From the IMG/VR virus record IMGVR_UViG_3300050821_013777, positions 57,544 to 121,543 of that record: a stretch of 64,000 bases of DNA. One strand, written 5' to 3'. This stretch comes from a virus. A program made the position numbers and the translations under genes. The notes below the pieces were generated by a model. It was not told where the DNA came from and searched no databases. It saw only the letters and a program-made list of their open reading frames with translations. Shown here in pieces: positions 58,332 through 59,109 of this stretch (position 1 is its first letter; every line of letters begins with the position of its first letter).

Positions 58332-58508
58332 CTAGAGCACGATTGCGTGGCGCTGCGGAGCGACGTACGCCTTCCCGACGGCCTGGAAGGCTGTCTCGCT
58401 ACGTCCTGCAGCTGGACCGACATCGACGATGAGCACCTGATCTTCGTCGTGGTTGATGATTGGCGTCAGCGCAGCCAGCATCTCGATTCGTTCCAGAGCT
58501 GACAGCTC
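58332..58508 (-). pseudogene. cas2: C-terminal half of a Cas2 (type I-G/I-U-like), 5'-truncated
   Basis: ELSALERIEMLAALTPIINHDEDQVLIVDVGPAAGRSETAFQAVGKAY matches the Cas2 C-terminal pattern as I recall it; the N-terminal YD strand is missing and is replaced by a half CRISPR repeat. Confidence 0.65.
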
Positions 58509-59109
58509 AACAATCGCTACGATCGAGGACCGACCTATCTTCGCGACGCTCAGCGAAGTGACCAACACAATCCGCCCCCTCTCACGATCGCCACACTAGA
58601 GTCGCGCCTCTAGCGGTTTACGATCACCGTCTGGTGACCACACAATCCGCCCCCTCTCACGATCGCCACCTCTATTCATGCTTGACACATATCGGTAGCC
58701 AGATAGTGACCACACAATCCGCTCCCTCTCACGATCGCCACTGACCAAGCCCCCGAGCGAAGTGGATTCCGTCCTCTTGTGACCACACAATCCGCCCCCT
58801 CTCACGATCGCCACGCGTGCCGCTCTGGGCGGTTACTCCTCGACTTGCCCGTGACCACACAATCCGCCCCCTCTCACGATCGCCACATTGGTTCTCGCGG
58901 ATATCACGGTCGCCCATCGAGTTCGTGACCACACAATCCGCCCCCCCTCACGATCGCCACAGCTAGAGGGTGTCACGGTCACGCACGCGCCCCGCACCCG
59001 GTGACCACACAATCCGCCCCCTCTCACGATCGCCACTTCGCAAGCCGTCTGGCGGCCCGGATGGGTCCCAGCTGTGACCACACAATCCGCCCCCTCTCAC
59101 GATCGCCAC
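58506..59109 (-). CRISPR. CRISPR array, 36-nt repeat GTGGCGATCGTGAGAGGGGGCGGATTGTGTGGTCAC; 8 full repeats, one half repeat, 8 spacers of 36-40 nt
   Basis: Repeats at 59074-59109, 59001-59036, 58925-58960, 58851-58886, 58779-58814, 58706-58741, 58634-58669, 58558-58594 (1-nt insertion) and a remnant at 58506-58520. Spacers are unique; degeneration at the low end implies minus-strand orientation. Confidence 0.97.

Follow-up and report, generated by a model that had tools for sequence, protein, structure and literature searches.

A type I-G cas2 fragment joined through a half repeat to the trailer end of a phage-borne type V CRISPR array

Results

A type V unit and a cas2 fragment in a soil phage

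This study concerns the trailer end of a CRISPR array in a 64,000-nucleotide (nt) stretch of viral DNA, hereafter the window, which comprises bases 57544–121543 of the IMG/VR virus record IMGVR_UViG_3300050821_013777 (121,543 nt; completeness estimate 88%). The record belongs to a soil phage whose minus strand bears a type V CRISPR-Cas unit for interference only, made up of a TnpB-like cas12 gene, a tracr-like RNA with an anti-repeat, and an array of eight repeats, and the genes near the array match phage helicase, primase and exonuclease families. At the trailer end of this array, a partial copy of a repeat leads without interruption into the 3' part of a cas2 gene of type I-G. Window coordinates are used throughout; the array, cas12 and the cas2 piece all lie on the minus strand, in DNA of 61–63% G+C. 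In the order in which they are read, the features are as follows.

59097–60905, minus strand: TnpB-like cas12 open reading frame (ORF) of 602 amino acids (aa), with a RuvC/zinc-ribbon core to about residue 455 and a tail that overlaps the tracr-like region
59265–59508, minus strand: scaffold of a candidate trans-activating CRISPR RNA (tracrRNA), covered by a metatranscriptome contig (run X3, record 19)
59233–59267, minus strand: anti-repeat of the candidate tracrRNA, with a predicted RNA duplex with the repeat
58558–59109, minus strand: CRISPR array made up of 8 repeats (36 nt each, except 37 nt for the last) and 7 spacers of 36–40 nt
59109–59074, 59036–59001, 58960–58925, 58886–58851, 58814–58779, 58741–58706 and 58669–58634, minus strand: repeats 1–7, 36 nt each
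58558–58594, minus strand: terminal degenerate repeat of 37 nt with a 1-nt insertion, containing GTG 58568, where the 78-aa ORF has its first start codon
58521–58557, minus strand: last spacer-length unit, 37 nt
58509–58520, minus strand: half repeat, identical to repeat positions 1–12 at 9 of 12 nt
58332–58508, minus strand: cas2 3' fragment, codons 39–96 of a 96-aa I-G-type Cas2, plus stop
58332–58568, minus strand: open frame of 78 aa, 20 residues from the terminal repeat, the spacer and the half repeat, then 58 Cas2 residues

The cas2 fragment

The best and only PADLOC model to match the 78-aa ORF was Cas2g (E 3.6e-9; residues 17–77 on profile positions 36–95 of 96), and its residues 22–77 aligned with positions 40–94 of a 95-aa Cas2 chain (7mi4_E, E 4.9e-6) in PDB entry 7mi4, which we take to be the Geobacter sulfurreducens Cas4/Cas1-Cas2 complex of type I-G (formerly I-U). 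A search of 5.8 billion proteins returned 10 matches at E≤1e-3 among 12 candidates, eight of which were full-length Cas2 proteins of 96 aa that were 71–83% identical over 76% of the query. The closest full-length Cas2 found (P0002), which itself matches PF09827 (8.1e-17) and Cas2g (8.4e-27), is identical to the fragment at 49 of 58 residues (84%), and in the alignment of these proteins (A1) the homology begins at the Glu of 'CEL', residue 39 of 96. An earlier sequence-only reading of this DNA had likened the peptide to the C-termini of type I-G/I-U Cas2 proteins, and the significant match in the Cas2 profile search, together with the structural match and the identity to P0002, bears this out; its placement of the array end, the 37-nt unit, the half repeat and the start of cas2 at GAG 58508 was likewise correct.

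A complete Cas2 fold is not encoded, the homology being confined to the part from residue 39 of 96 onward, and the 38 missing N-terminal residues presumably correspond to β1-α1-β2-β3 of the fold, including the conserved acidic residue of strand β1. No Cas2 family in Pfam or NCBIfam matched the ORF at E≤1, and PF09827 had no match at this threshold across the whole record. Most of what these models represent is the part of the protein that is absent here; the Pfam model, largely confined to the lost N-terminal two thirds, aligns with P0002 at residues 5–69. When P0002 was compared with the record by tblastn, only the fragment was recovered (E 2.6e-30), with no match to the N-terminal part of cas2 anywhere. 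An alternative start at ATG 58481 would yield a product of 49 aa (P0003). All recorded copies of the fragment are identical (P0001, P0090, P0003), so that selection on it is not measurable. The 90% cluster of the 49-aa protein also includes a 387-aa 'SAM-dependent methyltransferase' (P0091), which has no evident likeness to P0003 by eye and was set aside as a clustering oddity.

A junction within a repeat unit

Read on the minus strand, the half repeat (58520–58509) is GTAGCGATTGTT, compared with GTGGCGATCGTG at repeat positions 1–12, and all three differences fall on third codon positions and are synonymous in the frame of the ORF. In the rest of the window, on both strands, a match of at least 9/12 occurred at 185 of 126,718 positions (1.46e-3) and one of at least 9/11 at 46 of 126,720 (3.6e-4). 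Allowing for the five offsets that would be in register with the array (spacers of 36–40 nt), the chance of such a half repeat is about 0.002–0.007; the likeness exceeds chance, though it rests on 12 nt only.

Homology to cas2 begins exactly at 58508 (GAG, Glu) in both DNA and protein, and ends at the stop codon, 58334–58332. Local DNA alignments with eight full-length cas2 genes start at 58508 in three cases (128/177 identical positions for the gene at locus L090, 125/177 at L092 and 72/95 at L091) and deeper within the gene in the other five. Identity to the eight genes is 33–46/60 in the 60 nt past the junction, compared with 12–18/60 in the 60 nt before it, and the half repeat matches cas2 codons 35–38 at just 2–3 of 12 positions. 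The junction is sharp, and the repeat unit in which it falls keeps the register of the array. Two DNA runs, each from a different study and one of them possibly the source sample, have contigs that span the junction with 0 differences (X1, 57771–58521; X2, 58239–58594), and the same 78-aa protein is recorded from two other assemblies, one in ENA (contig of 138,487 nt) and one from JGI (138,494 nt).

The array, cas12 and the candidate tracrRNA

The cas12 ORF matched guided_TnpB in NCBIfam (9.7e-59) and, in PADLOC, Cas12u4 (1.2e-60), which was the best model but scarcely ahead of a Cas12f model (1.4e-56). Its Pfam domains are Cas12f1-like_TNB, HTH_OrfB_IS605 and OrfB_IS605, and its best sequence matches in the PDB are TnpB chains. 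A RuvC/TNB nuclease of the TnpB-Cas12 family thus adjoins the array, as in type V, and the array begins within the final codons of the ORF, the last four of which (W-R-S-stop) fall in the first repeat at repeat positions 2–13.

The predicted duplex between anti-repeat and repeat has an energy of −47.4 kcal/mol, whereas shuffled repeats gave a mean of −35.5 (standard deviation 2.7) and none of 300 reached the observed value; folding calculations therefore predict a tracrRNA with an anti-repeat of the kind found in the tracr-dependent subtypes of type V. The anti-repeat with which the repeat pairs is on the array's own strand, which sets the orientation of the array, with the cas2 side as the trailer, where degenerate repeats lie. 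We conclude that this is a tracr-type type V array, read from the minus strand. The anti-repeat coincides with the most conserved stretch of the Cas12 tail (tail alignment A2). The last 130-odd codons of cas12 (59097–59500) are patchily conserved in relatives, and this conservation may reflect a tracr or omega-like RNA rather than the protein tail. The soil metatranscriptome contig at 59265–59508 (244 nt, word depth 29.9, 0 differences), which indicates presence only and neither the ends nor the strand of the RNA, would fit an abundant guide-scaffold RNA. Other contigs of run X3 on the region (57545–58276 and 61053–61203) have depths of 2–7; the run has no contig on 58337–58670, which has no bearing on expression of the cas2 stump.

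The seven spacers measure, in order, 37, 40, 38, 36, 37, 36 and 39 nt, and the repeat forms no hairpin (fold z −0.15). A search of the phage record and the retrieved loci with eight spacers gave only chance matches of 16–21 nt, a 24-mer from the last spacer had 0 matches in the viral contig collection, and the array had no match in the phage collection; because no protospacer was found, the 37-nt unit at 58521–58557 is not provable as a spacer. The 3' 21-mer of the repeat did not occur in the viral contig collection, nor did the full repeat, at up to 3 mismatches, in any of 401 genomes from the phylum of genome G004. Rfam gave a single chance-level match (E 0.94) on 57500–61500, and a consensus scan of 57900–61200 for promoters and terminators turned up 0 sites resembling a promoter and none resembling a terminator on the minus strand.

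Comparison with cellular type I-G loci

The closest cas2 genes for which DNA was available came from metagenome-assembled genomes (MAGs) labelled Myxococcota, with 66–68% identity to P0002, and, among the matches listed, from soil metagenome contigs, with 69–71% identity to the fragment. One locus (L012) is a canonical I-G locus, with Cas5/6g (2.7e-132), Cas7g (7.7e-41), Cas8g (1.9e-219), Cas3g (5.5e-261) and the adaptation genes Cas1g (1e-173) and Cas2g (9.4e-29). At another (L090), a 592-aa Cas4-Cas1 fusion (Pfam Cas_Cas1 7.6e-88, Cas_Cas4 2.9e-15) is followed by cas2, a leader of about 250 nt and an array. Of the loci with the closest cas2 genes, 4/5 from genomes and 3/4 from metagenomes showed an array next to the gene.

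The repeats near these genes are 36–37 nt long and contain an 8-bp hairpin and a tail ending ATTGAAGC (fold z −2.6 and −3.5). Alignment scores of the phage repeat with the I-G repeats of L009, L012, L090 and L091 were −4 to −7, compared with shuffle means of −3.9 to −6.3. The phage array is not an I-G array, the repeats being unrelated, and no I-G-style repeat stands beside the phage cas2 piece. Furthermore, cas2 precedes the leader in I-G loci, whereas in the phage the cas2 piece is at the trailer end, and none of the local DNA alignments with up to 400 nt after each of the eight cas2 genes extends beyond the phage stop codon. The phage array, with 36-nt repeats and 36–40-nt spacers, nearly matches the geometry of the I-G arrays (36–37-nt repeats, spacing of 71–77 nt), although the sequences are unrelated, and this shared geometry may reflect the use of I-G-type integrases.

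G+C at third codon positions is 0.695 in the fragment and 0.690 in cas12, compared with 0.77–0.94 in seven of the eight cellular cas2 genes and 0.69 in that of L009. Cas1 and the Cas4-Cas1 fusion were the only I-G genes searched for in the record, and neither was found: PF01867 (Cas1) had 0 matches in the 121.5 kb, with controls positive in 7/14 genomes, and tblastn with a 532-aa Cas4-Cas1 fusion protein (P0161) gave a best E of 1.5, with no remnant.

Relatives of the phage unit

With the Cas12 core as query, 8000 candidates were scored, of which 78 proteins had E≤1e-20. A Cas12 that is 87% identical to that of the window (P0013) has one contig on record, of 89,553 nt from JGI. The same is true of P0002, the closest Cas2, and of P0161 (PADLOC Cas1g 1.4e-173), which is among the best 120 matches to the Cas4-Cas1 fusion of L090. 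These three proteins probably share one contig, in which case a close relative keeps the whole I-G-type module as well as cas12. The divergence of Cas2 (84% identity to P0002) is similar to that of Cas12 (87% to P0013). RWRS-stop closes the Cas12 ORFs of P0013, of P0012 (90% identical to the window's Cas12, on a 42.3-kb contig) and of P0089; the window reads these codons from repeat positions 2–13. The arrays of these relatives therefore begin at the corresponding place with the same repeat.

A complete phage record in IMG/VR (G405, 140,124 nt; locus L171, 8001–10957) encodes a Cas12 of 36% identity, followed directly by 15–16 repeats of about 36 nt at a spacing of 71–75 nt, and this kind of unit therefore occurs in at least two phage lineages of similar size. 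In a local synteny comparison with this locus, only Cas12 matched (1/12 window proteins). Scans of IMG/VR, from which records very near the window's own were possibly left out, gave nine pattern matches and 0 relatives with the Cas2 alignment, one distant locus (L089, 23%) with Cas12, one locus (L171) with the Cas12 alignment, and none with P0161. In samples of cellular genomes, the Cas12 protein was found in 0/5 genomes (G001–G005) and in 0/251 genomes of the phylum of G004 (E≤1e-40).

Neighboring features

The next gene downstream begins 33 nt past the cas2 stop codon.

58041–58298, minus strand: ORF of 85 aa with no family match

On the plus strand at 55282–56047, three adjacent small ORFs (66, 99 and 95 aa) have in common a repeated stretch ending ALLAAYRL and look like tandem paralogs of a small phage protein. 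Run X1 contains more contigs on 56500–61500 that are only 90–99% alike, diverging at 56568, 57680, 57931, 58230, 61135 and 61173, indicating that related variants of this phage region coexist in that sample.

Discussion

The cas2 piece at the end of the phage array is best explained as the stump left by a deletion or illegitimate recombination in an ancestor that had cas12, the array and an I-G-type adaptation module, a reading to which we assign a probability of roughly 75%. Such an ancestor would have carried, on one strand, cas12, the tracr region, the array, and the adaptation genes with cas2 last. A single event could then have joined position 12 of a further repeat at the trailer end to codon 39 of cas2, removing the rest of that repeat, the first 38 codons of cas2 and the DNA in between (most likely the cas4-cas1 fusion gene), and leaving a system capable of interference only. 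Because a simple scan revealed no terminator-like site on the minus strand, the stump may be carried on the 3' end of the array transcript. It is most likely without function, since neither the N-terminal part of the Cas2 fold nor the Cas1 partner was found in the record.

Several observations weigh against this reading. P0002, P0013 and P0161 are placed together only by equal contig size and source, and the 89,553-nt contig might be cellular rather than viral. Two contigs with a 90%-identical Cas12 (42.3 and 42.7 kb; P0012 and P0089) have no Cas2-like protein among the matches of the fragment search, and the G405 phage, with its 36%-identical Cas12, has no Cas2 at E≤1. One sub-lineage may therefore have gained the module late, in which case it would not be ancestral to the group as a whole. 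All 58 codons remain in an intact frame, and the phage copy shows no sign of decay, matching seven other Cas2 proteins at 42–45 of 58 residues, compared with 41–43 of 58 for its sister P0002; this lack of extra divergence fits a recent event or selection alike. The reading frame continues across the join, a purine-rich stretch and then a GTG are available in the terminal repeat, and the chance that three random positions among 12 would all be of the synonymous kind seen in the half repeat is 4/220, although this pattern was noticed post hoc. Finally, at an estimated 88% completeness of the record, a cas1 gene elsewhere in the phage genome is possible.

Some of these observations would fit a functional stump, in which the in-frame chimera is translated (78 aa from GTG 58568 or 49 aa from ATG 58481) and acts as a decoy that binds the host's I-G Cas4/Cas1 or Cas2 and blocks spacer acquisition against the phage; the sequence-only reading had named a retained Cas1-binding peptide as its alternative. 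The possibility is compatible with an origin by deletion, and the product would keep helix α2, strand β4 and the C-terminal tail of Cas2. The intact frame without extra divergence, the in-frame join with its synonymous differences, and the purine-rich stretch about 6 nt ahead of the GTG are all in its favor; the closest cas2 genes in named genomes, those of Myxococcota MAGs with canonical I-G loci, give a mere hint at such a host, and AcrVA5, a phage protein described in PMC11021501 as blocking integration by binding Cas2, offers a parallel. However, the loss of 38 N-terminal residues makes an independent fold doubtful, the first 20 residues are read from repeat and spacer DNA, all recorded copies are identical, and a 78-codon open frame is weak evidence at 61–63% G+C, so that we regard a functional stump as unlikely. 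A variant of this idea is that the deletion created a new small gene, with a repeat-derived stretch resembling a ribosome-binding site and a GTG start, whose product, through the retained helix, strand and C-terminal tail of Cas2, binds the host's I-G Cas4/Cas1 or poisons Cas2 dimers; the phage would thereby turn a remnant of the module it once had against the acquisition of spacers from its own DNA. The 20-residue N-terminus, with its hydrophobic end IVAIV, would here stand in for the lost Cas2 strand, and the synonymous differences in the half repeat would be a trace of selection on the frame; we think this quite unlikely.

Independent capture would dispense with a viral module altogether: illegitimate recombination would have brought to the end of the phage array a segment of a host I-G locus beginning within cas2. 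The closest Cas2 proteins in named genomes do lie in cellular I-G loci (Myxococcota MAGs, 66–68% identity to P0002), and other phage relatives have cas12 and an array without Cas2. The contig of P0002, however, matches that of P0013 in size and source, which is unlikely to be a coincidence. In addition, cellular cas2 genes lead into a leader of about 250 nt and an I-G array, whereas the phage has no such homology past the stop and an unrelated ORF begins 33 nt on, and the third-position G+C of the fragment equals that of cas12 and is below that of 7/8 cellular cas2 genes. We therefore consider independent capture improbable. The sequence-only reading had interpreted the junction as a recombination scar recording capture of the array from, or alongside, a class 1 adaptation module. 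A recombination scar inside a repeat unit is supported, and an association with a class 1 module is supported indirectly by P0002, P0161 and P0013, but it is very unlikely that the type V array descends from an I-G array belonging to the cas2-donating module. The two kinds of array are alike in geometry, with 36-nt repeats and 36–40-nt spacers in the phage and 36–37-nt repeats spaced 71–77 nt from start to start in I-G loci. Against this, the comparison with the arrays beside the best Cas2 matches revealed unrelated hairpin repeats, the scores being no better than those of shuffles; the phage repeat has no hairpin and pairs with the anti-repeat by cas12; cas2 lies at the trailer end rather than ahead of a leader; and the same array geometry recurs in the G405 phage, whose Cas12 is 36% identical and in which no Cas2 was found. 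The scar more likely records the loss of a module than the capture of an array. An artifact of metagenome assembly might also be suspected, since repeats are classic points at which contigs break or are mis-joined, but the agreement without differences of two DNA runs from two studies, and the recovery of the same protein from ENA and JGI contigs, make a chimeric join extremely unlikely.

Spacer-acquisition genes are usually absent from small TnpB-like Cas12 systems and from most CRISPR systems carried by phages, and the gain and loss of these genes are inferred mostly from trees. In the phage studied here, the breakpoints of one module loss appear to have been kept to the base, both in the repeat and in cas2. 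If the contig of the relative confirms this interpretation, then a class 1 adaptation module was taken over by a TnpB-proximal type V system and used there with a repeat unlike those of type I-G, which bears on how strictly integrases and repeats must match, and it would follow that phages shed the adaptation module quickly and keep interference. We view the finding as an evolutionary snapshot, not as a new mechanism. By title and abstract, a literature search on truncated or partial cas2 returned no report on phage arrays, although the V-U clade tables of PMC10691335 might already include this lineage and its association with Cas1/Cas2.

Comparison with known systems

The phage ORF resembles the I-G Cas2 of 7mi4, aligning with residues 40–94, and its full-length relatives follow Cas4-Cas1 fusion genes in canonical I-G loci. 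It is unlike I-G Cas2 in comprising codons 39–96 only, the N-terminal 38 residues being replaced by 20 that are read from repeat and spacer. The surroundings differ as well: neither Cas1 nor I-G repeats were found beside the phage piece, and no I-G effector genes turned up, although no search was aimed at them. The anti-CRISPR AcrVA5 (PMC11021501) would provide an earlier example of a phage interfering with adaptation; the protein is unrelated, and it is relevant only to a possible decoy function of the stump.

Parallels also exist with TnpB-proximal type V systems (V-U variants, V-U4/Cas12n and Cas12f), which, as surveyed in PMC10691335, likewise combine a small TnpB-like Cas12, an array directly downstream and a tracr-like anti-repeat, with no working adaptation genes. 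That survey reports no linkage to other cas genes for most V-U variants, a cas1-cas4 fusion within type V so far only in V-B, and at least 12 gains of adaptation modules by Cas12 lineages. Set against these systems, the phage unit is distinguished by the cas2 stump after its array and by a close relative that appears to carry a Cas4-Cas1 fusion and Cas2 of the I-G type. CRISPR systems on mobile elements, phages included, often occur without adaptation modules, according to the review PMC11656645, and the phage unit is like them in having a phage-borne effector and array, with no Cas1 found and no whole Cas2. It is unlike the systems described there in that a physical remnant of the lost module appears to be still joined to the phage array, giving the breakpoints of the loss.

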